A stretch of DNA of 64,000 bases from Escherichia phage vB_EcoM_PTE-Eco05, in sequence record PQ306573.1; one strand, given 5' to 3'. Positions 3,569 to 61,383 of this stretch are shown one piece after another (within the stretch, counting starts at the first letter, position 1; every line of letters begins with the position of its first letter). Under the pieces are notes generated by a model, which did no database searches, was not told where the DNA came from, and saw only the letters and a list, made by a program, of their open reading frames with translations. Position numbers and translations under genes: made by a program.

Positions 3569-3580
3569 GGGCCGAAGCCC
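3569..3580 (-). other. intercistronic RNA hairpin GGGC-UUCG-GCCC (minus-strand sense) between genes 37 and 38
   Basis: Plus-strand GGGCCGAAGCCC; 4-bp GC stem with UUCG tetraloop on the late transcript, immediately upstream of the gene 38 RBS. Confidence 0.5.
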
Positions 3581-7597: not shown

Positions 7598-7605
7598 CGC
7601 GAAAA

Positions 7606-7621
7606 GGAGACCAAAGTCTCC
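7606..7621 (-). terminator. stem-loop with U-run after gene 35 (minus-strand terminator)
   Basis: GGAGAC/GTCTCC 6-bp stem with 4-nt loop, followed on the minus transcript by UUUU; lies between the gene 35 stop and the gene 36 late promoter. Confidence 0.55.
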
Positions 7622-7622
7622 T

Positions 7623-8747
7623 TTATTCTGTGTACTCTTTAAATTCCTGCCCAAATACCTTACCTGTGTCGTTAGATAACTGAGTAGGCAAGTCCATTAT
7701 ATCATTACCGGTTAATGATTCATCAATGTAATTAACACGAATACCGTTTATACCAAACTCGGCGGGTTTTGCTATACTTCCGTTACATGATACTTCAGTG
7801 AAAATAACATTTCTTAGTCCACCTTGACCGACTGAGGCCGTACGGTAACAATATACTGTAAAGCCATCAGCTTCAGCTGGTATTTCAACGTATTCTTCAT
7901 ATAGCTTCCACTCCCGGGCAGTTCCATCAAAGTTTATATCTTTAGATGATATAGGAGAGCTAGATGGAGACTTAAAGAAACGAATTGAAAGTCTTGTGGT
8001 TCCTTCCTCTAATAATTCTTCATCAGCCATTAATTGAAATTTCAAATAAAGAAAATCTGTAGGCTTTAATCCATAGTTTGCGATAGGAGTAACAAGGGAT
8101 GATGTAGGCATCCTTTTTATTTCATTGTTAGTTCCTCCAACAGGAGATAAAAACGTTTCTAGAGCTTCATATGTACGTCTAGGATAGCCGGTAGCACCTA
8201 TATCAGCAATAGAGTCATATACAATATCTAATGGAGTTGCGTAATCAGAAATTGTTTTCTTATTACTGTATTTTATGTGTTCTAATGCAATAGTATTTTT
8301 ACCTGAAACATAAAACGCTGAATATGAAATATCAACAAGACTAGCAACTTCAATCGACGGTATAACTGAACTCCCAGCAGCTTTAAACCATTCAATTATT
8401 TCTGGCGGCAAATTAAATTTGTTATTAGAAATAAATGCGAAAATGAAATTATCTGCGTATGTGTTAACAAACGAAATAAATGCAGCTGAAGTTGCATTAT
8501 TTGTAGGCGCAAAATTGTATAATTTACTATCAACTATAGTTCCATTTTCCGGATTTATCACCCTAACATTTAGTCCAATACCAAAAGACTGCAACCCTAA
8601 AGGCTCATTTTGGAATAAAATATACGGATTAGTTGTTGAAAGCGGGCATGAACCCGCTATACTTAGCTTAAATCTAACTGAATTGCTTTCCGATAAAAAC
8701 GGCGTTTGGACGTATCCCTGTCCAAACCTTGCCATAAATTTTTCCAT
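7623..8747 (-). CDS. 35: long tail fibre hinge connector gp35
   Basis: 374 aa; position between 34 and 36 and size match T4 gp35; AAGAGG RBS. Confidence 0.88.
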   Translation of the reverse strand: MEKFMARFGQGYVQTPFLSESNSVRFKLSIAGSCPLSTTNPYILFQNEPLGLQSFGIGLNVRVINPENGTIVDSKLYNFAPTNNATSAAFISFVNTYADNFIFAFISNNKFNLPPEIIEWFKAAGSSVIPSIEVASLVDISYSAFYVSGKNTIALEHIKYSNKKTISDYATPLDIVYDSIADIGATGYPRRTYEALETFLSPVGGTNNEIKRMPTSSLVTPIANYGLKPTDFLYLKFQLMADEELLEEGTTRLSIRFFKSPSSSPISSKDINFDGTAREWKLYEEYVEIPAEADGFTVYCYRTASVGQGGLRNVIFTEVSCNGSIAKPAEFGINGIRVNYIDESLTGNDIMDLPTQLSNDTGKVFGQEFKEYTE

Positions 8748-15893: not shown

Positions 15894-15911
15894 GGGAGAC
15901 TTCGGTCTCCC
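15894..15911 (+). terminator. rho-independent terminator after gene 32 (GGGAGAC-UUCG-GUCUCCC plus U-run)
   Basis: 7-bp GC-rich stem, UUCG tetraloop, then TTTT. Confidence 0.7.
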
Positions 15912-15942
15912 TTTTGAGTATCTGTAAATTGCCGAAAAAGTT

Positions 15943-15971
15943 GTTTACTTCTTCCCTGGATGTGTTAGTAT
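15943..15971 (+). promoter_or_regulatory. early-type promoter (GTTTAC ... TGTGTTAGTAT) upstream of frd.3-like ORF
   Basis: GTTTAC 15943-15948 and extended -10 ending 15971. Confidence 0.55.
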
Positions 15972-16000
15972 AGACCTATCAACAACATGAGGAAATCAAA

Positions 16001-16393
16001 ATGGAAATCGGAAAATCTTATATCATTAACCCTTTATTTAAAGATGACTTTGTTCAAGAAGCACCACACAATAACGCTAAGATGTTAAAATTGATTGAAC
16101 TCCACGGGCCTAGTTTTGTTGTAAACGGAATGAAACCTGATTATGATAGCGATACGTCAAACGTAGTAAGTGTAACTATGGAAGATGGTACTGTATGTTC
16201 TGCCGGTGGTGAAATTGAAACTTATTTTGAGATTTATTATGATGAGTTCAAATACTTTACTGAGGTAGATTTAGTAAAGCCTCAACCTACTAACGAAGGT
16301 ATAACTTTAGGTATAACAAAAATCCATTGTATCGTAGATGAAACTAACGTCGACGAAATCATCAAACTTTTGCAAAAAACTTTTAAAAAGTAG
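16001..16393 (+). CDS. hypothetical protein (frd.3 position)
   Basis: 130 aa ORF with RBS GAGGAAAT; between 32 and frd as in T4. Confidence 0.6.
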   Translation: MEIGKSYIINPLFKDDFVQEAPHNNAKMLKLIELHGPSFVVNGMKPDYDSDTSNVVSVTMEDGTVCSAGGEIETYFEIYYDEFKYFTEVDLVKPQPTNEGITLGITKIHCIVDETNVDEIIKLLQKTFKK

Positions 16394-17294: not shown

Positions 17295-19167
17295 AACAAT
17301 ACCAATACCTGATTAAAGATATCTTAGAAAATGGCTACGAAACAGACGACCGTACAGGTACAGGCACTATTGCCCTGTTCGGAACTAAATTGCGATGGGA
17401 TCTGACTAAAGGATTCCCTGCGGTAACAACTAAGAAATTAGCATGGAAAGCTTGTATTGCCGAGTTACTGTGGTTCATGTCTGGCTCTACCAATGTTAAT
17501 GATTTGCGTATTCGTACTCATGGTAGTCTTATTCAAGGTAAAACTATTTGGGACGACAACTATGAAAATCAGGCAAAAGACCTTGGATATCATAGCGGCG
17601 AACTTGGTCCTATTTATGGTAAGCAATGGCGTGATTTTGGTGGTGTAGACCAATTGGTCAAAACTATCGACCGTATTAAAGCTCTTCCTAATGATCGTCG
17701 TCAAATAGTTTCTGCATGGAACCCGGCTGAAATTGACCAAATGGCTCTTCCTCCTTGTCATATGTTCTATCAATTTAATGTGCGTAATGGACATCTTGAT
17801 TTACAATGGTACCAACGCAGTGTTGATGTTTTCTTAGGTTAATTTAGGCCTAGGTATAAGGTGACTTATACTTGTAATCTATCTAAACGGGGGACCTCTC
17901 TAGTAGACAATCCCGTGCTAAATTGTAGGACTACCCTTTAATAAATACTTCTATATAAAAAGAGGTGTTTATGAAAAGCGGAATTTATCAGATTAAAAAC
18001 ACTTTAAACGGTAAAGTGTATGTTGGAAGTGCTAAAGATTTTGAGAAAAGATGGAAGAGGCGTTTTAAAGACCTTGAAAACGGTGTTCACTCTTCTATAA
18101 AATTTCAAAGGTCTTTTAATAAACATGGTAATGTTTTTGAATGCTCTGTACTGGAAGAAATTCCATATGAGAAAGATTTGATTATTGAACGAGAAAATTT
18201 TTTGATTAAAGAGCTAAATTCTAAAATTAATGGATATAATATTGCTGATGCGTCTTTTGGCGATGTGCTTTCAAATCATCCATTAAAAGAAGAAATTGCT
18301 AAGAAACGAGCTGAAACTGTTAAAGCTAAGATGCTTAAGCTTGGTCCTGACGGTCGGAAAGCTCTTTATGGTAAACACGGAAGTAAAAATGGCCGATGGA
18401 ATCCAGAAAACCACAAGTTTTGTAAATGCGGTGTTCGCATACCATCTTCGGCCGATACTTGTGGAAAGTGCCGAAAACGTTCAGGTGAAAATAACCCGTT
18501 CTTTAATCACAAACATTCAGAAAAAACTAAAACTAAACTATCTGAAAAGATGAAAGGCAAAAAGCCAGCTAACATCAAAAAGATTTCATGCGATGGGATT
18601 ATTTTTGAATGTGCAGCCGATGCGGCTAGACATTTTGAAATTTCATCAGGATTAGTTACTTACCGTGTAAAATCTGATAAGTGGAATTGGTTCTACATAA
18701 ATGCCTAACGACTATCCCTTTAGGGAGTAGGGTCAAGTGACTCGAAACGATAGACAACTTGCTTTAACAAGTTGGAGATATAGTCTGCTCTGCATGGTGA
18801 CATGCAGCTGGATATAATTCCGGGATAAGATTAACGACCTTATCTGAACATAATGCTACCGTTCAACATTGCCTCGTACGCTGCCTTGACGCATATTGTA
18901 GCGAAGATGTGTAACCTTATCCCAGGTGATTTAGTGTTCTCAGGCGGCAACACGCATATCTACAGCAATCATGTAGAACAATGCAAAGAAGTTCTTCGTC
19001 GTGAACCTAAAGAGTTGTGTTCTCTTGAAATTAATTGGCCTAGTAATTTTGAGAATTGGCCTACAAAAATCCAAATGGACTGGGTTACTGGAACGATGAC
19101 ACATTCTGATTTCGTTCTTAAAAATTACGAATCTCATCCAACTATCAAAGCTAAAATGGCGGTATAA
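17291..19167 (+). CDS. td: thymidylate synthase, interrupted by a group I intron; CDS = join(17291..17839, 18856..19167)
   Basis: Exon 1 ends ...QRSVDVFLG, exon 2 continues LPFNIASYAALTHIVAKMCNLIPGD...; joined product 286 aa as in T4 Td. Confidence 0.93.
17840..18855 (+). mobile_element. self-splicing group I intron in td (1016 nt) carrying I-TevI
   Basis: Intron 5' end TAATTTAGGCCTAGGTATAAGGTGACTTATACTTGTAATCTATCTAAACGGGG... matches the T4 td intron as recalled; exon 1 ends with T, intron ends with G; length equals the T4 td intron. Confidence 0.9.
17971..18708 (+). CDS. I-TevI: GIY-YIG homing endonuclease I-TevI (intron-encoded)
   Basis: 245 aa from MKSGIYQIKNTLNGKVYVGSAKDFEKRWKRR...; GIY...YVG motif; near-identical to T4 I-TevI as recalled. 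Confidence 0.95.
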   Translation: MKSGIYQIKNTLNGKVYVGSAKDFEKRWKRRFKDLENGVHSSIKFQRSFNKHGNVFECSVLEEIPYEKDLIIERENFLIKELNSKINGYNIADASFGDVLSNHPLKEEIAKKRAETVKAKMLKLGPDGRKALYGKHGSKNGRWNPENHKFCKCGVRIPSSADTCGKCRKRSGENNPFFNHKHSEKTKTKLSEKMKGKKPANIKKISCDGIIFECAADAARHFEISSGLVTYRVKSDKWNWFYINA

Positions 19168-19509: not shown

Positions 19510-20934
19510 ATGCAAGTAACTAAGAGCAGTGGTGTATCCCAAAATTTTGATGCACAGAAAATTATTCAAGTCTTAACTTGGCAATGTGAAGGAACACAAA
19601 TTGACCCATATGAATTGTACGAAGAAATTAAGACCCATCTTGTCGACGGGATGAGCACCAAAGATATCCAGAAGATTTGTATTAAAGTTGCAGCTAACTC
19701 GATTTCTGTCGAAGAACCTGATTATCAGTATGTCGCCGCCAAAGGGCTAATGTTTGCACTTCGTAAAGATGTATATGGGCAGTTTGAACCGCCTGCTTTT
19801 ATCGACCATATTTCTTATTGTGTTAATGAAGGCAAATATGACCCTGAGCTGTTGTCTAGATATTCTGCAGAAGAAATCATTTATCTTGATTCTCGGATTA
19901 AACATGAGCGAGATTTTGACCTGACTTATGCTGGTGCTATGCAGCTTAAAGAAAAATACCTGGTTAAAGATAAAACAACTGGGAAGATTTATGAAACTCC
20001 ACAGTTTGCTATCATGGCTATCGGTATGGCCTTACACCAAGACGAAACTCATGACCGTTTGAAACATATTATTCGTTTTTATGATGCCGTTTCTACTCAT
20101 CAAGTTTCATTGCCAACCCCAATTATGGCAGGTGCTCGTACTCCAACTCGCCAGTTCTCTAGTTGTGTAGTTATTGAAGCCGGTGATTCGTTAAAATCTA
20201 TTAACAAAACTTCAGCATCAATTATTGAATATATTTCTAAACGAGCTGGTATTGGTATCAACGTTGGTATGCTTCGTGCAGAAGGTTCTAAGATTGGTAT
20301 GGGTGAAGTTCGACATACAGGTGTTATTCCATTTTGGAAACATTTCCAAACTGCAGTAAAATCTTGTTCTCAAGGTGGTATTCGTGGTGGTGCTGCTACA
20401 GCGTATTATCCGATGTGGCACTTAGAAGTAGAGAACCTATTAGTTCTGAAAAATAACAAAGGCGTGGATGAAAACCGTATTCGACATATGGACTACGGAA
20501 TTCAGATTAATGACCTCATGATGGAACGCCTTGGTAAAAATGATTATATTACTTTATTTAGCCCTCACGAAATGTCAGGCGAACTATACTACTCGTTCTT
20601 TGAAGATCAAGATAAATTCCGTGAGCTTTATGAGAAAGCTGAAAAAGACCCAACAATCAGAAAGAAAAGAATCAAAGCACTAGAACTCTTTGAATTGTTC
20701 ATGACTGAACGTTCTGGTACTGCTCGAATTTATCCACAGTTTGTTGATAACACGAATAACTACACTCCGTTTATTCGTGAAAAAGCTCCAATTCGTCAGA
20801 GTAACTTATGTTGTGAAATCGCTATTCCAACTAATGATGTGAATAGCCAACAAACCCGTTTAATCAAAATTAAGAAGTCGGATGTAGCTAAGTTTTATGA
20901 AGCTAATCCTGGCGGTATAATTCAAAGCAAATAA
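19510..20934 (+). CDS. nrdA: ribonucleotide reductase alpha subunit, N-terminal piece (NrdA-a)
   Basis: 474 aa; ends ...SNLCCEIAIPTNDV (class Ia active-site Cys/Glu motif) followed by a 30-aa non-homologous tail and stop. Confidence 0.9.
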   Translation: MQVTKSSGVSQNFDAQKIIQVLTWQCEGTQIDPYELYEEIKTHLVDGMSTKDIQKICIKVAANSISVEEPDYQYVAAKGLMFALRKDVYGQFEPPAFIDHISYCVNEGKYDPELLSRYSAEEIIYLDSRIKHERDFDLTYAGAMQLKEKYLVKDKTTGKIYETPQFAIMAIGMALHQDETHDRLKHIIRFYDAVSTHQVSLPTPIMAGARTPTRQFSSCVVIEAGDSLKSINKTSASIIEYISKRAGIGINVGMLRAEGSKIGMGEVRHTGVIPFWKHFQTAVKSCSQGGIRGGAATAYYPMWHLEVENLLVLKNNKGVDENRIRHMDYGIQINDLMMERLGKNDYITLFSPHEMSGELYYSFFEDQDKFRELYEKAEKDPTIRKKRIKALELFELFMTERSGTARIYPQFVDNTNNYTPFIREKAPIRQSNLCCEIAIPTNDVNSQQTRLIKIKKSDVAKFYEANPGGIIQSK

Positions 20935-20979
20935 AGTACACAGACCGTTAATAAATAATCCATAACAAGAGGAAAAGTT

Positions 20980-21690
20980 ATGGATTATTCTAAAATTTAC
21001 AATAACCTTATTTCTAAAGCTAAGAATAGAAAATTAGATTGCTATACCGAATCACACCATATTATACCTCTGTGTATTGGTGGTTCTGATACAAAGGAAA
21101 ACCTGGTAGATTTGACACCAGAAGAGCATTACATAGCTCATCAATTATTAGTAAAGATATATCCAGATAATCATAAATTGATATTTGCCGCTAATATGAT
21201 GTGTGTTTATTCTAAAGATAATATTGAACGAAAGAACACCAATAAACGCCATGGGTGGCTTAGAAGAAAATTGGCTATTTCTGTATCTGAAAATAATAAA
21301 GGCAAACCAGCTTGGAACAAAGGTATTCCTATGTCTCCAGAAGTTAAATCTCGACTTCAAACATCTTGGGTGTTTACATTTCCGGATGGTCATGAGGAAA
21401 TTCATCGAGGTCTTAACGAATTTTGTAAAGAGCATAATTTAAATCCATCTGCAATGTCAGCCGTTTGTAAAGGTAAACGGGCGCATCACAAAGGATTTAA
21501 GTGTAAGAAATTGGATAAGATTTCAGAGCTTGATAATTTAGTTTTCGTCAGTAAACCTCATCCAAAGGGATTAAAACCCCATAACTTAATTGCTGTAAAA
21601 ATAAACGGTATAGAATATCAATCAATACATCGAGCATCTAAAGCTTTAGGAATTACTAGAAAAAAGGTAGAAGAATTAAATGAATATTGA
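20980..21690 (+). CDS. HNH homing endonuclease (MobE-like) inserted within nrdA
   Basis: 236 aa; HNH motif ESHHIIPLCIGGSDTKENLVDLTPEEHYIAH; own RBS GAGGAAAAG; stop overlaps the start of the downstream nrdA piece. Confidence 0.8.
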   Translation: MDYSKIYNNLISKAKNRKLDCYTESHHIIPLCIGGSDTKENLVDLTPEEHYIAHQLLVKIYPDNHKLIFAANMMCVYSKDNIERKNTNKRHGWLRRKLAISVSENNKGKPAWNKGIPMSPEVKSRLQTSWVFTFPDGHEEIHRGLNEFCKEHNLNPSAMSAVCKGKRAHHKGFKCKKLDKISELDNLVFVSKPHPKGLKPHNLIAVKINGIEYQSIHRASKALGITRKKVEELNEY

Positions 21691-22669
21691 TTATGAATTT
21701 GTAGATGAATTTTACGAAGATGATGAGTATACTACAATAAAAGTTATTGAAAACAAGGGAGAAGTGGGGCTTTGTACTCTCTCTGCATTCGTATTAGATA
21801 AATTTGATTGGCAAGACCAAGATAAAATTAATGAACTTGCTGAAGTACAAGTACGTGCACTTGATAACCTGTTAGACTATCAAGATTATCCGGTTCCAGA
21901 AGCTTTAAAAGCTAAAAAGCGTCGTAATCTTGGTGTTGGTGTTACGAACTATGCTGCATGGTTAGCTTCTAACTTTGCTTCATATGAAGACGCTAACGAT
22001 TTGACTCATGAATTGTTTGAGAGATTGCAATATGGCCTTATCAAAGCATCAATCAAACTCGCCAAAGAAAAAGGATGTTGCGAGTATTATTCAGACACTA
22101 AATGGTCTAGAGGCGAATTACCTATCGACTGGTACAATAAAAAGATTGACCAAATCGCAGCCCCGAACTACGTCTGTGACTGGGAAGAACTTCGAGCTGA
22201 ACTCAAAGAACATGGAATTCGTAACTCAACGTTGTCTGCACTCATGCCTTGTGAGTCAAGCAGTCAAGTATCGAACTCTACAAACGGGATTGAGCCCCCA
22301 CGTGGTCCAGTAAGTATTAAAGAATCTAAAGAAGGCAACTTCCGACAGGTTGTTCCTAATATCGAACATAACATGAGTCTTTACGACTACGCGTGGAAAC
22401 TTGCTAAGAAAGGTAATAAACCTTATTTGACCCAAGTTGCTATCATGTTGAAATGGGTGTGCCAATCTGCTTCTGCTAATACTTACTACGACCCTGCAGT
22501 ATTTGAGAAAGGTAAAGTGCCAATGTCAGTAATGCTTGACGATCTGCTTTACTTCTGGTACTTTGGCGGAAAAAACCTCTACTATCATAACACCCGTGAT
22601 GGGTCAGGTACAGATGACTATGAATTAGAAACACCTAAAGCTGAAGATTGCTCTGCTTGTAAGCTTTAA
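21680..22669 (+). CDS. nrdA: ribonucleotide reductase alpha subunit, C-terminal piece (NrdA-b)
   Basis: 329 aa; after a ~29-aa leader continues GEVGLCTLSAFVLD...; ends with C-terminal CSACKL cysteine pair typical of NrdA. Confidence 0.9.
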   Translation: MNIDYEFVDEFYEDDEYTTIKVIENKGEVGLCTLSAFVLDKFDWQDQDKINELAEVQVRALDNLLDYQDYPVPEALKAKKRRNLGVGVTNYAAWLASNFASYEDANDLTHELFERLQYGLIKASIKLAKEKGCCEYYSDTKWSRGELPIDWYNKKIDQIAAPNYVCDWEELRAELKEHGIRNSTLSALMPCESSSQVSNSTNGIEPPRGPVSIKESKEGNFRQVVPNIEHNMSLYDYAWKLAKKGNKPYLTQVAIMLKWVCQSASANTYYDPAVFEKGKVPMSVMLDDLLYFWYFGGKNLYYHNTRDGSGTDDYELETPKAEDCSACKL

Positions 22670-22724: not shown

Positions 22725-24994
22725 ATGAGTACAGTTTTTAATACACAACAAGTCGATGTTTTGAACGAACCGATGTTCTTTGGTTCTGGTCTTGGTCTTG
22801 CACGGTATGATATTCAGCGTCATAAAGTTTTTGAAGAACTTATAGAAAAATCCTTGTCATTTTTCTGGCGCCCCGAAGAGGTAAACTTAATGTTGGACTC
22901 TGCACAGTTCAATAAGCTTCCTCAGTTCCAACAGGACATCTTTACAAACAATCTTAAGTATCAATCATTATTGGATTCTATCCAAGGCAGGGCCCCATCT
23001 GCGGTACTTATGGCACTGCTTTCCGACCCTTCATTAGATACGTGGGTTGCAACATGGACATTCAGTGAAACTATTCACTCTCGTTCATATACTCATATTA
23101 TGCGAAATCTTTATACCGATCCATCCAAAGTATTTGATGAGATTGTATTAGACGAAGCAATCATGAAACGAGCTGAATCAATAGGTAAATATTACGATGA
23201 TGTTCTAGTCAAGACTCGTAATTGGGAAAATGCTAAAGAATTTGTAGAACTAGCTAAAGAATCTCCTGATGCCGACTTTCGTTTAAACCGAGCTATTAAA
23301 CAAGAAGCCGAAGCTAAACGTGCTTTAATGAAATCTCTTTACCTCTGTTTGCACGTTATTAATGCCTTAGAAGCTATTCGTTTTTATGTATCTTTTGCGT
23401 AAAATGCGCCTTTAAACGGTAACGTTTATCGAAAACTCCTTTAATTGCTGGAAAGTCCTTTATAGGAAAACTAGCAGCCAAGGTTTTGCTTGCACCTTTA
23501 ATTAGTATAATATAAATATGATTATACTTTTAAGAGGATGCACAATTGAACTATAGAAAAATTTGGATAGATGCTAACGGACCTATACCTAAAGATTCTG
23601 ATGGAAGAACATACGAAATCCATCATAAAGACGGTAACCGTGAAAATAATGATTTAGATAATTTGATGTGCCTTTCTATACAGGAACATTATGATATACA
23701 TTTAGCTCAAAAAGATTACCAGGCTTGTCATGCTATAAAGCTTAGAATGAAATATTCTCCTGAAGAAATTTCTGAATTAGCTTCTAAAGCCGCAAAATCT
23801 AGAGAAATCCAGATTTTTAATATCCCTGAAGTACGAGCTAAAAATATTGCCTCTATTAAATCTAAGATAGAAAATGGTACATTTCATCTTTTAGACGGTG
23901 AAATACAGCGTAAATCTAATTTAAATAGAGTTGCATTAGGTATACATAATTTTCAACAAGCTGAGCATATTGCAAAAGTTAAAGAACGCAATATTGCAGC
24001 TATAAAAGAAGGTACTCATGTATTTTGCGGTGGTAAAATGCAGTCAGAAACTCAATCAAAACGGGTAAATGACGGTTCACATCATTTCTTGTCAGAAGAC
24101 CATAAGAAAAGAACATCAGCAAAAACATTAGAAATGGTTAAGAACGGAACCCATCCTGCACAAAAAGAAATCACATGTGATTTCTGCGGTCACATTGGTA
24201 AAGGTCCTGGATTTTATCTAAAACATAATGACAGATGTAAATTAAATCCAAATAGAATTCAATTGAATTGTCCATATTGTGATAAGAAAGATTTATCACC
24301 ATCAACATATAAACGATGGCACGGCGACAATTGCAAAGCAAGGTTCAACGACTAGTCTTCGGACGTAGGGTCAAGCGACTCGAAATGGGGAGAATCCCTC
24401 TGGGATTGTGATATAGTCTGGTCTGCATAGTAATATGTAGCAGTTCATAAGAGAACGGGTTGAGAATTAGCGAGCTCAATCGAACATAACGGTACCTTTA
24501 ACTTCCATAAGAACATGGAAATTATGGAAGGTAATGCAAAGATTATGAAGTTCATTGCTCGTGACGAACAACTCCATCTCAAGGGTACTCAGTACATTAT
24601 CCGTCAACTTCAATCTGGTACTGATGGCGATGAGTGGGTTCAAATTGCTAAAGAATGTGAACAAGAAGCAGTTGACATTTTTATGGAAGTAAATCGTCAA
24701 GAGAAGGAATGGGCTGCACACCTCTTTAAAGACGGTACATGTCCAGGTATCAATACGCAGAGTATGTGTGCTTTTGTTGATTACTTGACTGTGTCTCGTA
24801 TGAAACAGTGTGGTTTGCCATGCCCAATCACTGATGCTCCGACCAAGCATCCGTATCCTTGGATTCGTGAATATCTTAACTCTGATTTAGTTCAAGCAGC
24901 TCCTCAGGAAGTTGAAATCAGTTCTTATCTTGTTGCACAAATTGATAATGATGTGGACCAAAATGTAATCAATTCATACAAAAAATATTTCTAA
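22725..24994 (+). CDS. nrdB: ribonucleotide reductase beta subunit, interrupted by a group I intron; CDS = join(22725..23400, 24492..24994)
   Basis: Exon 1 ...LEAIRFYVSFA plus T of a Cys codon; exon 2 resumes GT ACC TTT AAC... giving CTFNFHKNMEIMEGNAK...; joined product about 392 aa. Confidence 0.85.
23401..24491 (+). mobile_element. group I intron in nrdB (about 1091 nt) carrying I-TevIII
   Basis: Exon 1 ends with T (23400), intron ends with G (24491); frame is restored only by this join; boundaries inferred, not matched to a reference. Confidence 0.75.
23546..24355 (+). CDS. I-TevIII: HNH homing endonuclease I-TevIII (full-length, intron-encoded)
   Basis: 269 aa; HNH motif YEIHHKDGNRENNDLDNLMCLSIQEHYDIH and C-terminal Cys-rich zinc finger (CDFCGH...CPYC); length matches the intact RB3-type I-TevIII as recalled. 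Confidence 0.85.
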   Translation: MNYRKIWIDANGPIPKDSDGRTYEIHHKDGNRENNDLDNLMCLSIQEHYDIHLAQKDYQACHAIKLRMKYSPEEISELASKAAKSREIQIFNIPEVRAKNIASIKSKIENGTFHLLDGEIQRKSNLNRVALGIHNFQQAEHIAKVKERNIAAIKEGTHVFCGGKMQSETQSKRVNDGSHHFLSEDHKKRTSAKTLEMVKNGTHPAQKEITCDFCGHIGKGPGFYLKHNDRCKLNPNRIQLNCPYCDKKDLSPSTYKRWHGDNCKARFND

Positions 24995-24998
24995 GGAC

Positions 24999-25012
24999 GG
25001 GACTTCGGTCCC
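24999..25012 (+). terminator. UUCG-loop hairpin after nrdB
   Basis: GGGAC-TTCG-GTCCC directly after the nrdB stop, followed by a T-rich tract. Confidence 0.55.
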
Positions 25013-25020
25013 ACTTTATT

Positions 25021-25431
25021 ATGAAAGATATTGCCGCCGAATATTCCTTTATTAAATATATAGAATTGGAGCTATTAGAAGATGCAACAATTAAAACAGT
25101 TGATGTCCCTAATAAGAAAAATGTCATATATGCTATTGCTATAGATGACGAACTTGTGTATATTGGTAAAACCAAGAATTTAAAGAAACGCATTAACTAT
25201 TATCGAACAGCCATAAATCGAAAAGACCAGACTTCAGATTCAAGAAAATCACTTATGATTTTGGATGCCTTAATGCAAGGCAAAAAGGTTGAATTCTGGG
25301 CCCGCCAATGTTTTGACCTTTCAGTCACCAACGAACTTGGTTCAATGACCATCGCAACAATGGACCTTGAAGAACCACTTTTTATCAAAAAGTTCAACCC
25401 GCCTTGGAATATCCAACATAAGAAAAAGTAG
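25021..25431 (+). CDS. denA: endonuclease II (GIY-YIG family)
   Basis: 136 aa, MKDIAAEYSFIKYIELE...VYIGKTKNLKKRINYYRTAINRKD...NPPWNIQHKKK matches T4 DenA. Confidence 0.95.
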   Translation: MKDIAAEYSFIKYIELELLEDATIKTVDVPNKKNVIYAIAIDDELVYIGKTKNLKKRINYYRTAINRKDQTSDSRKSLMILDALMQGKKVEFWARQCFDLSVTNELGSMTIATMDLEEPLFIKKFNPPWNIQHKKK

Positions 25432-33196: not shown

Positions 33197-33490
33197 GTTT
33201 TAGGTGATTCGCTACCTTAGTGCGGCTAGAAAATCGAGGAGCCGTCGAACTGTCTGATTAATGATTTGCGAATCATTATAGTTTTAAGACCCCGACAGTT
33301 TTACGGTGTACCTCTTGAATGTATTTTGTACTATCACGCGTCAGAAAAAGGTTATCTGTCTAAGTCGTGGTTGGTATGATGACGGGTTTATGGTTATCCT
33401 GTCGTTAAATATCCAAAACCTATGTTCCCCTTGAGGGCTTGCGCAGGCAATGTCAATAAGTCCTGCATTTTCATTTAAAGAGAATTTATA

Positions 33491-33670
33491 ATGGCAAAAC
33501 AAGCTAAAGCAAAGAAAGCAGTCGAAAAGAAAGTTGATGGTACCTCTAAACGCGCTGGATACAAGCGTGGGTCGAACTCTCGTATTAATCAAACAGTTGA
33601 GAAGATCATGCGCAGAGCACGTGCAGTTCTTCGAGATGATGCTTCTCGTTTTGGAAAGGTTGTTGCATAA
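33491..33670 (+). CDS. hypothetical small basic protein (59 aa), absent from the ORF track
   Basis: ATG at 33491 to TAA at 33668-33670; Lys/Arg-rich (MAKQAKAKKAVEKKVDGTSKRAGYKRGSNSR...); followed at once by a UUCG terminator hairpin. Confidence 0.45.
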   Translation: MAKQAKAKKAVEKKVDGTSKRAGYKRGSNSRINQTVEKIMRRARAVLRDDASRFGKVVA

Positions 33671-33675
33671 TTTTA

Positions 33676-33693
33676 GGGAGACTTCGGTCTCCC
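33676..33693 (+). terminator. rho-independent terminator (GGGAGAC-UUCG-GUCUCCC plus U-run)
   Basis: Same 18-nt hairpin as after gene 32, followed by TTTT. Confidence 0.7.
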
Positions 33694-33730
33694 TTTTGTG
33701 AGTTTAGGGCAGAAAAAGTTTAAAAAAGAT

Positions 33731-33759
33731 GTTTACTCTCCTGTAGGATGTGTTACTAT
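33731..33759 (+). promoter_or_regulatory. early-type promoter (GTTTAC ... TGTGTTACTAT)
   Basis: GTTTAC 33731-33736, 17-nt spacer, TACTAT 33754-33759; precedes the block of ORFs upstream of ligase. Confidence 0.55.
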
Positions 33760-33800
33760 AGACTTGTACCACCTAATCAATAAAACAACCGGAGAATAAA

Positions 33801-34166
33801 ATGAACTACATCAACTTCGAACGCAAATATGTTTCTAACGGTATCGCTGGTTCTATCGATATGGTTTGCTTGTGGAAGCATAAAAATGGTTCAGTATGTG
33901 AAATTGAGCAGTATATGACTCCTAATTACGTTTATATGCGCTTTGAAAATGGTATCACGGTTTCAATCACGATGGAAGGTTCCAACTTCAAAATTGCATT
34001 AGATGACGATTTCCGTCAACGTGATTTAGGTACTCATCCTTGCTGGAACGGTGTTAATCGTAAACTTCTGGTTAAAACTTGGATTCGTCATATCCTGAGT
34101 AACCGAGCTAAACCTGAACATCTCGAAGCAATCTTTGATGTAGTTCTTAACGAATTCGATATCTAA
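33801..34166 (+). CDS. hypothetical protein (121 aa)
   Basis: ORF track; RBS GGAGAATAAA. Confidence 0.55.
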   Translation: MNYINFERKYVSNGIAGSIDMVCLWKHKNGSVCEIEQYMTPNYVYMRFENGITVSITMEGSNFKIALDDDFRQRDLGTHPCWNGVNRKLLVKTWIRHILSNRAKPEHLEAIFDVVLNEFDI

Positions 34167-34173
34167 TTTAACT

Positions 34174-34189
34174 GGGAGCCGAAGCTCCC
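34174..34189 (+). other. GC-rich hairpin (GGGAGC-CGAA-GCTCCC)
   Basis: 6-bp stem with 4-nt loop between two ORFs; no U-run on the plus strand; reads as a UUCG loop on the minus strand. Confidence 0.4.
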
Positions 34190-37948: not shown

Positions 37949-38136
37949 TGAAAGCTTATTTAGAAACAGTTATTGTAGCTAAGAAGGATGGTGGAGATGT
38001 TTCCACCTCTTGCTCTCAGATTATATTAGATTTTCCTAATGAAAATTCGTATCGGGTTTTCGTAGATAACGTTAATGGGTACGAAAAAGGCCCCAATTTT
38101 GAAGTTTATCGTACTTTGCTCCCGATTGTGGATTAA
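37948..38136 (+). CDS. hypothetical small protein (62 aa)
   Basis: ORF-track entry trimmed to ATG overlapping the ligase stop (TAATG). Confidence 0.45.
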   Translation: MKAYLETVIVAKKDGGDVSTSCSQIILDFPNENSYRVFVDNVNGYEKGPNFEVYRTLLPIVD

Positions 38137-38150
38137 GAGCCTTCGGGCTC
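38137..38150 (+). terminator. rho-independent terminator (GAGCC-UUCG-GGCUC plus UUUUU)
   Basis: 5-bp stem, UUCG loop, five T residues, immediately after the ORF stop. Confidence 0.65.
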
Positions 38151-38191
38151 TTTTTGGCATAAATATAAATTATTACTAAAAGGAAAACACT

Positions 38192-40631: not shown

Positions 40632-40640
40632 ACCCCTAAA

Positions 40641-40657
40641 GGGAGACAACGTCTCCC
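40641..40657. terminator. bidirectional terminator hairpin between convergent early (+) and late (-) units
   Basis: GGGAGAC-AAC-GTCTCCC 7-bp stem, TTTTT on the plus side and T-rich on the minus side; lies between the plus ORF stop (40631) and the gene 54 stop (40664). Confidence 0.65.
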
Positions 40658-40663
40658 TTTTTC

Positions 40664-49194: not shown

Positions 49195-49207
49195 TTTTAT
49201 CTCCTAA

Positions 49208-49219
49208 GGGCCGAAGCCC
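49208..49219 (-). other. intercistronic RNA hairpin GGGC-UUCG-GCCC between uvsW and uvsW.1
   Basis: Plus-strand GGGCCGAAGCCC identical to the element between genes 37 and 38; again immediately upstream of an AGGAGA RBS on the minus transcript. Confidence 0.5.
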
Positions 49220-50734
49220 TTATAAATTAATTGTTTTCATTACATAGTTAAATTTCTCATCAGCGTATCGTTGGATACGATCAATACCGTGTTTTAACAA
49301 GTAATTAAGATGAGTATACTTCTTTTTAGTATTTAATGATTTAGGTTTTACACCTGCATCGTCGATGAGATCCCAAACTGTAGCAACAGATTTAGAACCA
49401 TGCTTACGAAGCACGCGACCTACGGTTTGAAGTACGATAATTTTTGATTTAACACCATGGGCAAAAATAACATGATGAAGATTCTTGACTGAAATACCAG
49501 TAGAGAATACTCCATATGATGCAACAATAATAATGCCTTTACCATTTTCTGCCATGACTTTAAGCGCGTTACGTGTTTCAGTATCAACTTCACCTGATAC
49601 GTAATAAACTTTTTCGTATCCAAGCTCTTTAATAGCTTCAAATATTTCTTTACCGTGTGTAACGTGTTTAAACATTACAAAGGCGTTCTCGTCTTTCTTA
49701 GCCAATTTGACCGAAAGTTGAGCAATCCACTTTGTACGTCGTTTTAGTCCGGTAATAATTTTAACTTCTTCTTGGTATGTTTTACCTTTTAATTTAATGG
49801 TGAATTCGTCCGGATAACGAAGGAAAATACTATTAATCTTAAGCTCAGTTACCTGTCCGTCTTCCATTAATTTAGACGTGCTAACAGGACGGAAGATTTC
49901 GCCGAACATACCTACGTACTGCATTACATTGGCTTTTCCGTCTCTTAATGAGCCAGATAAACCGAATTTAAACATGCAATTATTTAATCCCGAGATGATT
50001 GAAGAAATACTTTTGCCTGTTGCTAAGTGGCATTCATCGTTCATCATCATACCGAACTGAGAGAACCATTCTTTAGGCTGCTTAACTACTGTTTGCCATG
50101 TGCCAACAATAATTGGAGCGTCGTTTTTAGATTTGTCTGCTTTATCAGCACCACCGCCAATTTTCTTAATCATCGAATGACTAAACAAGCGATAATCAAC
50201 AAAATCATTAGCCATCTGGGTTGTCAATGCTGTTGTAGGGACGATAATGAGAATTTTACCTTCATAATTCTCTAGATAATATCGAGCTAAAAGTGCTTGG
50301 ATTAGTGATTTACCTGCTGATGTCGGAAGGTTTAAAATTCGACGACGATTAACCAGACCTTCATATACTGCATCTTTTTGATACCAATGTGGTTCGATTT
50401 TGGCGTTGCCTGAATAAATTTCTTGTTTAGAAAGCCACGCGTCAAAATCTTCCCTGGTAAGGTCTTCGGTCTCAAAGATTTTAGGGTCAATCCATACAGA
50501 ATAACTCATATTGCTACAGAACTTTTTTATTTGTCCTACAAGTCCATATGGTAACAAACGGTTGTAATCTAAAAGTCGAATTCTACCATCCCAGTTCCCA
50601 TAGCGATATTTTGGGTTAAATTTATACCCGTCAGCTTCAAAGCTAAAAAAGTCACGAAGTTCGTAAAACGTACTTTCGTCGCATTCAATGCGCACGTGAC
50701 TAAAATCATAAAAATGTACTTTAATGTCAGTCAT
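49220..50734 (-). CDS. uvsW: UvsW ATP-dependent DNA/RNA helicase
   Basis: 504 aa; SF2 helicase motifs (LPTSAGKS Walker A, DECH box); strong similarity to T4 UvsW. Confidence 0.93.
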   Translation of the reverse strand: MTDIKVHFYDFSHVRIECDESTFYELRDFFSFEADGYKFNPKYRYGNWDGRIRLLDYNRLLPYGLVGQIKKFCSNMSYSVWIDPKIFETEDLTREDFDAWLSKQEIYSGNAKIEPHWYQKDAVYEGLVNRRRILNLPTSAGKSLIQALLARYYLENYEGKILIIVPTTALTTQMANDFVDYRLFSHSMIKKIGGGADKADKSKNDAPIIVGTWQTVVKQPKEWFSQFGMMMNDECHLATGKSISSIISGLNNCMFKFGLSGSLRDGKANVMQYVGMFGEIFRPVSTSKLMEDGQVTELKINSIFLRYPDEFTIKLKGKTYQEEVKIITGLKRRTKWIAQLSVKLAKKDENAFVMFKHVTHGKEIFEAIKELGYEKVYYVSGEVDTETRNALKVMAENGKGIIIVASYGVFSTGISVKNLHHVIFAHGVKSKIIVLQTVGRVLRKHGSKSVATVWDLIDDAGVKPKSLNTKKKYTHLNYLLKHGIDRIQRYADEKFNYVMKTINL

Positions 50735-52593: not shown

Positions 52594-52599
52594 TCGTAA

Positions 52600-52613
52600 G
52601 GGGCTTCGGCCCC
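52600..52613 (+). terminator. rho-independent terminator after hoc (GGGGC-UUCG-GCCCC plus U-rich)
   Basis: 5-bp GC stem, UUCG loop, TTTCTTCGTTTTT tail. Confidence 0.65.
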
Positions 52614-52694
52614 TTTCTTCGTTTTTAAAGCATACAAAACACAACTTGAGATTGATGTATATAATGGCACAAACCAAATAATACGGGATTGATT

Positions 52695-53256: not shown

Positions 53257-54255
53257 ATGTTTAAGAAATACAGCAGTCTTGAAAACCACTACAACTCTAA
53301 GTTTATTGAAAAACTCTACACTAATGGTTTGACTACTGGTGTTTGGGTAGCACGTGAGAAAATCCATGGGACCAACTTCTCGTTAATAATTGAACGTGAC
53401 AACGTCACATGCGCCAAGCGCACAGGCCCTATTCTTCCAGCAGAAGATTTTTATGGTTATGAAATCGTACTCAAGAAGTATGATAAAGCTATTAAAGCCG
53501 TTCAGAAATTCATGTACACAGCTCGAGCCGTATCATATCAAGTATTCGGTGAATTCGCTGGTGGTGGAATCCAGAAAGGTGTTGACTATGGTGAAAAAGA
53601 TTTTTATGTGTTCGATATCCTTATCAATACAGAAAGTGGTGATAATACGTATTTGACTGATTACGAAATGCAAGATTTCTGTAATGAATTCGGTTTTAAA
53701 ATGGCACCAATGCTTGGTCGTGGCACATTTGATGCTCTTATCATGATTCCAAACGACCTTGATTCTGTCTTAGCCGTTTATAATGCTACAGCGTCAGAAG
53801 ACCTTGTCGAAGCAAATAATTGCGTATTTGATGCTAATGTTATTGGTGATAATACTGCGGAAGGTTATGTTCTGAAGCCTTGTTTCCCTAAATGGCTGCC
53901 AAACGGTACTCGTGTAGCTATTAAGTGCAAGAACTCTAAATTCAGTGAAAAGAAAAAGTCTGATAAGCCTATTAAAACTCAGGTTCAATTAACCGAAATT
54001 GACAAAAACTTGCTTGATGTTCTAGCTTGTTATGTTACATTAAATCGTGTTAATAATGTTATTTCTAAGATTGGGACTGTAACGCCAAAAGATTTTGGCA
54101 AAGTGATGGGATTGACTGTTCAAGATATTCTGGAAGAAACTTCTCGTGAAGGTATTGTATTAACATCATCTGATAATCCGAATCTTGTTAAGAAAGAATT
54201 AGTCCGAATGGTGCAAGATGTTCTGCGTCCTGCATGGATTGAATTAGTATCATAA
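53257..54255 (+). CDS. rnlB: RNA ligase 2
   Basis: 332 aa, [21 protein letters not shown]...[16 protein letters not shown]...RPAWIELVS, near-identical to T4 Rnl2 (ligase lysine in KIHGTN). Confidence 0.95.
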
Positions 54256-54262
54256 CGAAAAA

Positions 54263-54278
54263 GGGACCGTAAGGTCCC
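54263..54278. terminator. bidirectional terminator hairpin (GGGACC-GUAA-GGUCCC) between rnlB (+) and gene 24 (-)
   Basis: 6-bp stem with GNRA-type loop, flanked by AAAAA upstream and TTTTT downstream. Confidence 0.7.
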
Positions 54279-54286
54279 TTTTTCGT

Positions 54287-55570
54287 TTATTCATCTATAA
54301 TAATTTTAGGCAATTTAACACCGAGTAAAACAGACAAGTCTGAACGTCCCGCCATTTTATCCATGTCCCCGCCATCAATTATTCTCGCTTCTTTTTCATC
54401 TTTTGCTACTGTGTAAGGATTTGCTGATAAAGCGTATCTAACCAATAAACCAATAGACGGTTGCAAGCTTTCTGGATCAACTACAACTTTAAAAGCACCG
54501 ACATGTTCCGGGTCATCTAAATCTACTCCTTCAGTGTATGGAGCATAAAAGATGGACCCTACAATTTCTTTTTCGCCGATATTTTCTACAACACCCACAA
54601 TAACATAATCTAACGGACTGTTGGTATCGCAGTAAAGAGGTAATCCATTTGCCAAGAATCCATAAGCATTTTGTGAAAGATACTTGTCATCTTCGGGCTT
54701 ATGTTTTAACCAACCAGAAGCAGCAAGAATAGCAGCTGCACGAGCTGAGGCTACACAAAACGTCGCAGTATAAGTTGACTCTTTTTGAATGTGTGATACC
54801 ATTTCACACACCATTCGATATAATGAACGACCTGCTTCTGGAGCTGATGCATAGCTCAAGTCAATAAATCCAGTGTCAGTAATTCCAGTAACTTTATAAC
54901 GTTTCGATACAGTAATTAAAGACTGAAGAATATCTTTATTAATTTCATCTGCCATTTCAGTAGCAAGCAAATCTTCTAAGAAGTTAGGGGCATCAAATCC
55001 ATTCGCTTCCAAATCTTGCGCTAATTCAACCGTGAGACCAGTTTTAAGTTTACGAGATTTGACTGAAGTTTGCCATTTATTAATCTGGAATCTTGCATCA
55101 GAAATTTCGCTACCAGAGCTTTCAAATTTGCTTGTTACCGCTGCATCTGAAAATAACCGTACCTTTAAATGAACGACTGCAATCTGAAGAGCTAATTCTA
55201 GATCACTTTCTTGAATATCTGCAAATGGTGTATCTTCTAACACTTTATAGACGATATTATTATATTTGAAAAAATCGCCTTTATTTAGTGTGACTTTTGA
55301 TTCTTCTGTGAGCTCAGTAATTTTTTCTCGGTCTACATATCCAACTTCACCCGCATAAGTAGCGCCAGTTTTAAATGTGAATTCGTTATCTGGGTTAAGA
55401 TATTTGATACCATAAAAAGCAGCAACAGGTTGATTAGTTCTTTGTGTTGCTACAATGTCAGAATATATTAATTTAGTCGTAGCGCGAGTCAAAGCAACGA
55501 GATTTGGGCGACCAATTGAGTTGCTAGTAGACGTTGTAGATTCACGCAATAATTTTTGGATTTTACTCAT
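54287..55570 (-). CDS. 24: capsid vertex protein gp24
   Basis: 427 aa, same length as T4 gp24 and paralogous to gp23. Confidence 0.95.
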   Translation of the reverse strand: MSKIQKLLRESTTSTSNSIGRPNLVALTRATTKLIYSDIVATQRTNQPVAAFYGIKYLNPDNEFTFKTGATYAGEVGYVDREKITELTEESKVTLNKGDFFKYNNIVYKVLEDTPFADIQESDLELALQIAVVHLKVRLFSDAAVTSKFESSGSEISDARFQINKWQTSVKSRKLKTGLTVELAQDLEANGFDAPNFLEDLLATEMADEINKDILQSLITVSKRYKVTGITDTGFIDLSYASAPEAGRSLYRMVCEMVSHIQKESTYTATFCVASARAAAILAASGWLKHKPEDDKYLSQNAYGFLANGLPLYCDTNSPLDYVIVGVVENIGEKEIVGSIFYAPYTEGVDLDDPEHVGAFKVVVDPESLQPSIGLLVRYALSANPYTVAKDEKEARIIDGGDMDKMAGRSDLSVLLGVKLPKIIIDE

Positions 55571-55941: not shown

Positions 55942-55951
55942 AACCAAAAAT

Positions 55952-55969
55952 GGGAGACCGAAGTCTCCC
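55952..55969 (-). terminator. terminator hairpin downstream of gene 23 (GGGAGAC-UUCG-GUCUCCC on the minus transcript, then U-run)
   Basis: Plus strand GGGAGACCGAAGTCTCCC, the reverse complement of the element at 15894 and 33676; minus transcript continues AUUUUUGG. Confidence 0.65.
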
Positions 55970-55993
55970 AAAATAAGATTTAATCAATTAAGA

Positions 55994-61335: not shown

Positions 61336-61383
61336 TGGACTTCTCCGTCATCACGGGAAGCTGGGGATTTCTCCCCAACAAGA

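Follow-up and report, generated by a model that had tools for sequence, protein, structure and literature searches.

The 18-nt element GGGAGACTTCGGTCTCCC occurs three times in a 64,000-nucleotide stretch of Escherichia phage vB_EcoM_PTE-Eco05 (record PQ306573.1; the whole stretch is called the window below), and its copies are very probably, at about 0.85, intrinsic terminators that close the gene 30.9, gene 32 and gene 23 transcription units of an RB69-like T-even phage. We infer this function from terminator prediction and from conservation. In the sense RNA, each copy would fold into a G+C-rich stem of 7–8 bp with a hyperstable C(UUCG)G cap, followed by a U-tract; the cap would let so short a stem fold fast and stably. 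The observations that we report are the sequence of these hairpins, their enrichment, sense orientation, intergenic location and positional conservation, and the covariation of their stems at orthologous sites.

The stability of the UUCG tetraloop was first discovered in intercistronic hairpins of T4. PMC4371310 and PMC8948821, citing Tuerk et al. (1988), describe hairpins of the CUUCGG type in T4 mRNA and in large numbers between T4 genes, and varied functions, mRNA stability included, have been ascribed to them (PMC8948821). The window elements resemble the T4 hairpins as these sources portray them: C(UUCG)G on a short G+C-rich stem, intergenic, present in the sense RNA, strongly over-represented, and tied to termination and mRNA stability.

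The window and its gene map

Over 4 kb around the 18-mer copy at 33676–33693, which lies in the focal hairpin of this study, the DNA is 94–97% identical to the Mosigvirus phages RB69, PhAPEC2, ChristianSchoenbein and JM10; judged by sequence similarity, the window comes from an RB69-like Mosigvirus of the T-even type. Genes were placed by combining a greedy ORF map with the RB69 annotation. The + strand is the early-gene strand, and 7% of the window is non-coding. The small basic ORF behind which an initial annotation of this DNA had located the focal copy is gene 30.9 (33491–33670, + strand), and the hairpin indeed lies 5 nt past its stop codon. Gene 30.8, present in RB69, is absent here, and the ORF 3' of the focal hairpin is gene 30.7 (33801–34166; it shares 115 of 121 residues with RB69 gp30.7). 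The loss of 30.8 (window 33695–33800 against 21643–22218 of RB69 locus L003) appears to fuse two similar early-promoter/ribosome-binding-site cassettes. On the other side of 30.9, the gap of about 290 nt that separates it from rIII (33197–33490) holds no ORF of at least 35 aa and no strong hairpin; RB69 and T4 have the same gap. Downstream of gene 32, RB69 (L003 7774–8126) has an extra ORF, RB69ORF245c, between the terminator–promoter cassette and frd.2, and T4 has frd.3 there. In the window the RB69ORF245c slot (15912–16000) seems empty, and the next ORF (16001–16393) is as long as frd.2.

Three genes in the window appear to be interrupted. At 17843–18852, td apparently contains a group I intron with an I-TevI homologue inside (ORF 17971–18708, with GIY-YIG, I-TevI zinc-finger and DNA-binding domains). 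The corresponding Rfam Intron_gpI match at 18577–18807 is below threshold (36 bits, E=1.5e-6), and a GUGA hairpin at 18790–18807 forms its 3' end; the td gene of RB69 has no interruption. nrdB is divided into ORFs 22725–23402 and 24515–24994, with a 229-aa ORF in between (window 23403–24514) and a further sub-threshold Intron_gpI match at 24200–24440 (34 bits, E=7e-6); the interruption is probably a T4-like nrdB intron, missing from RB69. nrdA (19510–22669) lies in two ORFs of 474 aa and 329 aa, which a 236-aa ORF (20980–21690) carrying an I-HmuI NUMOD-like endonuclease domain both separates and overlaps. The nrdA region gave no intron match, and the gene may have been split by a free-standing homing endonuclease, encoded by the 236-aa ORF.

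UUCG hairpins are over-represented, intergenic and sense-oriented

The three exact copies of the 18-mer lie at 15894–15911 (+), 33676–33693 (+) and 55952–55969 (−), with coordinates and strands as the initial annotation had given them. The same annotation had described a second, 12-nt element, GGGCCGAAGCCC, which is present at 3569 and 49208 and as its reverse complement at 52601, and a set of related hairpins, all of which (7603–7624, 40638–40660, 34174–34189, 38135–38152, 24999–25012 and 52598–52615) proved to be perfect hairpins. It had named a lack of enrichment over shuffled sequence as one finding that would speak against it. Enrichment was strong: the 18-mer, with three copies in the window, had no match in 100 dinucleotide shuffles even at two mismatches, an expectation of 0, and the window has nine perfect C(UUCG)G-loop hairpins whose stem is 4 bp or longer, where 200 dinucleotide shuffles gave a mean of 0.28 and at most 2. 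With stems of at least 6 bp the count was seven against 0.03, and the 12-mer at up to one mismatch gave four matches against 0.02 expected. All nine CUUCGG hairpins fall in the non-coding 7% of the window, and half (9/18) of its perfect G+C-rich tetraloop hairpins have a UUCG or CGAA loop.

The claim that the loops are UUCG on coding-strand transcripts held for nine of the ten UUCG/CGAA-loop hairpins, in which UUCG falls on the same strand as the neighbouring genes (binomial P=0.011), and failed for the hairpin at 34174, which reads CCGAAG and so presents CGAA on the sense strand. This bias argues for a role at the RNA level. A loose generic terminator pattern, scanned over 60 kb, returned 45 sites against about 39.5 in shuffles and thus no excess; that scan is uninformative, and the signal is confined to strong tetraloop hairpins. 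Rfam covariance models gave no match at the gathering threshold in the whole window; to our knowledge, simple terminators are not represented as Rfam families.

Predicted terminators after genes 30.9, 32 and 23

The elements at the three 18-mer sites are as follows.

33675–33694, + strand: focal hairpin AGGGAGAC-UUCG-GUCUCCCU, 8-bp stem with C(UUCG)G tetraloop; predicted terminator stem-loop after gene 30.9
33695–33706, + strand: focal U-tract UUUGUGAGUUUA (UUUUGUG if the final U of the stem is counted); a T-run is found in 25 of 25 orthologues
33731–33759, + strand: T4-type early promoter (GTTTAC, 17 nt, TACTAT, with TGn upstream), leading into gene 30.7
15894–15911, + strand: 18-mer 6 nt past the gene 32 stop, followed by UUUUGAG; early promoter at 15943–15971
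55951–55970, − strand: 18-mer 23 nt past the gene 23 stop, 8 bp with flanking bases, followed by UUUUUGGUUUU

The copies at 15894, 33675 and 55951 share a 7–8 bp stem with five G-C pairs and a 4-nt loop. At the focal site the RNA reads UAA-UUUU-AGGGAGAC-UUCG-GUCUCCCU-UUUGUGAGUUU, and the region folds with a minimum free energy of −15.6 kcal/mol (z = −2.7); the U-tract behind the gene 23 copy is AUUUUUGGUUUU. The early promoter lies 37 nt downstream of the focal hairpin. A strict early-promoter pattern finds only two sites in the window, one after gene 32 and one after gene 30.9, and these are near-identical.

Two sets of published predictions cover the same elements. In the GenBank record of PhAPEC2 the 30.9 hairpin is marked as a terminator predicted by ARNold, and the RB69 genome paper (Nolan et al., 2006; PMC1524935, Additional file 6) lists TransTerm Rho-independent terminators at the sites equivalent to those of the window, with a score of 100 for 30.9, 32, 23, 35/36, alt.1, alt.-3/54, hoc and rnlB/24. 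The RB69 counterpart of the focal element is the terminator '30.8<--30.9' (132140–132157), that of the gene 32 copy 'RB69ORF245c<--32', and that of the gene 23 copy '23-><-RB69ORF188c'. Early promoters were predicted just downstream of the RB69 30.9 (Pe:132117) and 32 (Pe:146013) terminators, and several RB69 terminators were noted as conserved in 5–6 T4-like genomes (PMC1524935).

We propose that the focal hairpin would end or attenuate the early transcript arriving from rIII/30.9, and that the early promoter about 40 nt downstream would restart transcription into gene 30.7. Termination may be only partial, because the focal U-tract is short (four U, then G). The copies after genes 32 and 23, and a further copy after gene 8 of RB69, would do the same job for their own transcription units.

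Other predicted terminators and a hairpin after gene 19

Further predicted terminators and, listed last, a hairpin after gene 19 are found elsewhere in the window.

7603–7624, − strand: AAAGGAGAC-UUUG-GUCUCCUUU, predicted terminator between genes 35 and 36, with late promoter TATAAATA next
40638–40660, no single strand: predicted bidirectional terminator AAAGGGAGAC-AAC-GUCUCCCUUU between convergent genes alt.-3 and 54
38135–38152, + strand: AAGAGCC-UUCG-GGCUCUU, then UUUGG; overlaps the alt.1 stop, upstream of alt
52598–52615, + strand: AAGGGGC-UUCG-GCCCCUU after hoc, then UCUUCGUUUUU
54254–54287, no single strand: predicted terminator for both directions, with a 15-bp stem and a GUAA (GNRA) loop, between the converging rnlB and gene 24
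61362–61377, − strand: UGGGGA-GAAA-UCCCCA with a GNRA loop, between gene 19 and the late promoter of gene 20; T4 has the same hairpin

In RB69, the first five of these sites carry, in the order given, the predicted terminators '35-->36' (said to be conserved in 6 genomes), '54-><-alt.-3', 'alt<--alt.1', '24.3<--hoc' and '24-><-rnlB' (PMC1524935). A hairpin followed by a U-tract on one strand is thus found after genes 32, 30.9, 23, 35, alt.1 and hoc. The members after 35, alt.1 and hoc would act as unidirectional terminators, and those at alt.-3/54 and rnlB/24 would serve both converging genes. The initial annotation had held that the members followed by U-runs are terminators, and this agrees with their gene context, strand and U-tracts, with the RB69 TransTerm and PhAPEC2 ARNold predictions, and with the conservation of position, with covarying stems, described next.

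Positions are conserved while stems covary

RB69 has the very same elements, with the identical 18-mer after 30.9 (132140–132157), 32 (146032–146049) and 23 (109234–109251). Its fourth copy (AY303349 89887–89904; locus L283) lies after gene 8, outside the part of the genome that the window covers, and is followed by the late promoter TATAAATA. In RB69, UUCG or UCCG loops are also found on different stems at the terminators that follow soc, a-gt.2 and e.6. The window phage differs from RB69, to which it is 94–97% identical, by the absence of gene 30.8, by two flipped hairpin loops and by the probable td and nrdB introns.

In T4, UUCG hairpins occupy the orthologous sites after 30.9, 23, hoc and alt.1. 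The hoc hairpin is identical to that of the window phage; stem sequences at the other three differ, with GAGGACUCC-UUCG and a T-run after gene 30.9, GGGAACC-UUCG and a T-run after gene 23, and AAAGGCC-UUCG-GGCCUUU at the alt.1 site. The T4 gene 32 terminator has a GGGGACC stem with a CUAGA loop and a T-run, and the T4 hairpin at rnlB/24 has a GAAA loop. The window lineage, unlike T4, reuses the GGGAGAC stem at 3–4 sites.

The same pattern holds more widely. All 25 regions downstream of gene 30.9 retrieved from IMG/VR have a hairpin and a T-run 6–14 nt past the stop, built on five stem types. When 11 distinct tetraloop hairpins from this site were aligned on their loops, 96% of cells paired, although this figure is partly circular because the best hairpin at each locus was chosen before pairs were counted; 5 of 9 pairs carried compensatory changes, and sliding the partner arm lowered pairing to at most 62%. 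The conservation of position is firmer evidence than the pairing percentage. In IMG/VR a hairpin also follows gene 32 in all 57 distinct regions and gene 23 in all 64, almost always with a T-run; most of the loops are UUCG, and the remainder are mainly UNCG or GNRA. Across T4-like phages, stems at orthologous sites covary while position stays fixed.

This turnover of stems bears on whether the reused stem might be a sequence-specific site for a phage protein, either the target GGAG of RegB or the site of another DNA- or RNA-binding factor, which would account for its reuse. GGAG does lie inside the 5' arm GGGAGAC, and the authors of PMC2839356 speculated that conserved stem-loops might be protein targets. 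Yet orthologous sites in other phages carry many unrelated stems, the other UUCG hairpins of the window have different stems as well, GGAG would be buried in a very stable helix, and UUCG loops are described as not binding proteins (PMC4371310). We give this explanation scarcely any credence, and note the RegB (GGAG) and BsaI (GGTCTC) motifs within the 18-mer as coincidences.

Hairpins without a U-tract and inverted loops

Three hairpins lie between genes and lack a U-tract.

3569–3580, − strand: GGGC-UUCG-GCCC, flanked by the gene 37 stop and the gene 38 Shine–Dalgarno sequence GGAGG
49205–49222, − strand: UAAGGGC-UUCG-GCCCUUA with the uvsW stop codon inside the stem and the uvsW.1 Shine–Dalgarno sequence GGAG directly after; identical in RB69
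34174–34189, + strand: GGGAGC-CGAA-GCUCCC between genes 30.7 and 30.6, a UUCG hairpin with inverted loop

The first two contain the identical 12-mers, which do stand directly upstream of ribosome-binding sites, as had been proposed. Since the U-tract is missing at 3569, 49205 and 34174, and doubtful at 24999 (between nrdB and denA; see below), these hairpins are not classed as terminators. They probably act after transcription, and those at 37/38, uvsW/uvsW.1 and 30.7/30.6 would do so as intercistronic hairpins beside ribosome-binding sites. The initial annotation had favoured a role for such members in mRNA stability or processing; their intercistronic location and lack of a U-tract fit this, but the nrdB/denA member is better described as part of a split ribosome-binding site.

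Such a role could be extended to the family as a whole. The hairpins would then be mainly RNA stability or processing elements, which polymerase reads through and which act either as a barrier to 3' exonucleases after endonucleolytic cleavage or as an insulator that keeps neighbouring ribosome-binding sites unpaired. The four members at 3569, 49205, 34174 and 24999 have no U-tract and cannot be classical terminators, and they adjoin Shine–Dalgarno sequences; T-runs, however, follow all three 18-mer copies and most other members, and are almost always kept in orthologues. The focal U-tract is just UUUUGUG, and mRNA stability is among the roles given for T4 CUUCGG hairpins in PMC8948821. Against these points, the hairpins stand at the boundaries of transcription units, just ahead of promoters or between convergent genes, and two independent predictors (TransTerm in RB69, ARNold in PhAPEC2) call terminators. 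We therefore consider a mainly stabilizing role possible but rather unlikely. The two roles can coexist: from general knowledge, a hairpin at the 3' end of an RNA, left there by termination or by processing, would slow 3'→5' exonucleases, and we retain termination as the primary role of the U-tract members.

The loop at 30.7/30.6 is CGAA in the window phage, UUCG in RB69 and PhAPEC2, and UUCA in T4; the window version of the hairpin was found at ≥99% identity in 6 of 167 phage records. The alt.-3/54 loop (40648–40650) is likewise inverted, being GTT in RB69 but AAC in the window phage. A sense-strand CGAA loop is also seen in one IMG/VR terminator behind gene 30.9 (locus L308). Loop inversions within perfect palindromes are consistent with flipping of hairpin loops by template switching.

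A candidate split ribosome-binding site at nrdB/denA

The remaining member without a clear U-tract has a different setting.

24999–25012, + strand: GGGAC-UUCG-GUCCC, preceded by a Shine–Dalgarno-like UAAGGA that overlaps the nrdB stop and followed, 8 nt downstream, by the denA AUG

The region 24993–25023 has the layout UAAGGAC-[14-nt hairpin]-ACUUUAUU-AUG. No Shine–Dalgarno sequence lies 3' of the hairpin, and the sole sequence resembling one precedes it. The order Shine–Dalgarno, hairpin, 6–9 nt and AUG, with no later Shine–Dalgarno, recurs in T4 and, among 18 distinct T-even-type sequences from IMG/VR, in nearly all, on differing stems and with UUCG, GCAA or GUAA loops; T4 itself has AAGGAG and then a UGGGCC-GCAA hairpin. 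The hairpin would bring the Shine–Dalgarno sequence and the denA AUG within working distance.

A comparison can be made with the split initiation regions of T4 genes 38 and 25, as treated in the review PMC3014915. About 23 nt separate the denA Shine–Dalgarno sequence from the AUG, with a stable hairpin inside this interval, an arrangement conserved across T-even phages, and folding would reduce the effective spacing to about 8–9 nt. Section 29 of that review does not name denA among its cases, and we found no paper naming a split denA ribosome-binding site in the literature covered, which was an incomplete selection. By its layout and its conservation, the nrdB/denA hairpin is probably part of a conserved split ribosome-binding site, which would be the third after T4 genes 38 and 25. 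The hairpin between genes 37 and 38 of the window is unlike the T4 gene 38 type, as it sits upstream of a normally spaced Shine–Dalgarno sequence.

The 18-mer is a generic hairpin, and evidence for recombination is limited

The exact 18-mer was found in at least 120 IMG/VR stretches. Among the matches listed there were 122 occurrences in 104 distinct contexts, at loci ranging from 30 to 63% G+C, and in 107 of the 122 (88%) at least five of the next 8 nt were T. A permuted control stem of the same composition, GGAGGAC-UUCG, was found in 108 IMG/VR stretches and is about as common, which rules out that the GGGAGAC stem is special. The 18-mer is a generic terminator hairpin, one of many interchangeable ones that unrelated phages have reached repeatedly, and it is not mobile. 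A longer mobile repeat was also rejected when the five GGGAGAC-type copies were aligned with their flanks, identity being limited to the hairpin and T-run; the extra similarity shared by the cassettes after 32 and 30.9 is the early-promoter consensus.

Sharing of stems within genomes was measured at the terminators after 32, 30.9 and 23 in 41 genomes, collapsed to 16 lineages (IMG/VR loci L125–L309). Non-orthologous terminators of one genome had a 6-nt loop-proximal stem arm in common in 8 of the 16 lineages, against 3.7 expected from label shuffling (P about 0.007). With the loop counted as well, the numbers were 3 and 2.2 expected, which is not significant. At the 30.9 site, the RB69 lineage has exchanged the common GGGACTCC stem wholesale for the stem used after 32 and 23. 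The sharing hints at homogenization within genomes or at a lineage-specific preference for certain stems.

The suggestion in the initial annotation that identical repeats could support recombination can be taken further. Identical hairpins might act at the level of DNA, copied or kept alike by short-patch gene conversion or template switching, and modular recombination could then use them as linker homologies, as with the PeSL (promoter-early stem-loop) cassettes, which mediate modular shuffling in RB49/phi1 (Arbiol et al., 2010; PMC2839356). In a more specific version, terminator stem 'alleles' such as GGGAGAC-UUCG would spread between non-orthologous sites by short-patch gene conversion or template switching and evolve in concert within a genome, the copies then becoming micro-homology linkers for gene shuffling. 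We regard the general proposal as improbable and the specific one as no less so. Three identical copies in the window and a fourth in RB69 are in its favour, but identity between copies ends at the hairpin, with only promoter consensus beyond, and 18 bp falls short of the ~50 bp of homology quoted for T4 recombination in PMC2839356. The excess of shared stem arms and the wholesale replacement at 30.9 speak for it; the excess loses significance once the loop is included, and the 18-mer stands in more than 100 unrelated viral contexts (among the matches listed), with the control stem in 108 stretches. Given this recurrence and the similarly common control stem, convergence on a few good stems is sufficient. 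Differences in gene content do adjoin terminator–promoter cassettes, as with the missing 30.8, and recombination at PeSL cassettes has been documented for RB49/phi1 (PMC2839356). The endpoints of the 30.8 deletion, however, appear in the promoter/ribosome-binding-site repeats and not in the hairpin. Support for the recombination claim is thus weak and indirect.

In PeSL, a stem-loop terminator and a strong early promoter form one intergenic cassette that recurs across the genome. The sites after 32 and 30.9 may resemble it in layout, with an early promoter 31–37 nt beyond the hairpin. According to PMC2839356, the stem-loop of RB49/phi1 PeSLs sits inside or beside a sigma-70 consensus promoter, on a polyG/polyC stem, whereas the window hairpin lies ~30–40 nt upstream of a T4-type early promoter. 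Also unlike PeSL, no promoter accompanies the gene 23 copy, and a late one follows the gene 8 copy of RB69. The PeSL authors themselves call the T-even elements analogues, not homologues.

Significance

The family of UUCG hairpins in the window is real but already known, being a long-known feature of T-even phages. Of modest value to specialists are the possible split site at denA, the loop inversions and the hint of stem sharing within genomes. Identification of the 18-mer as a probable terminator explains its repetition without invoking a new element, and its main use lies in correct annotation: as predicted terminators, these hairpins would show where the early and late transcription units of an RB69-like phage end.
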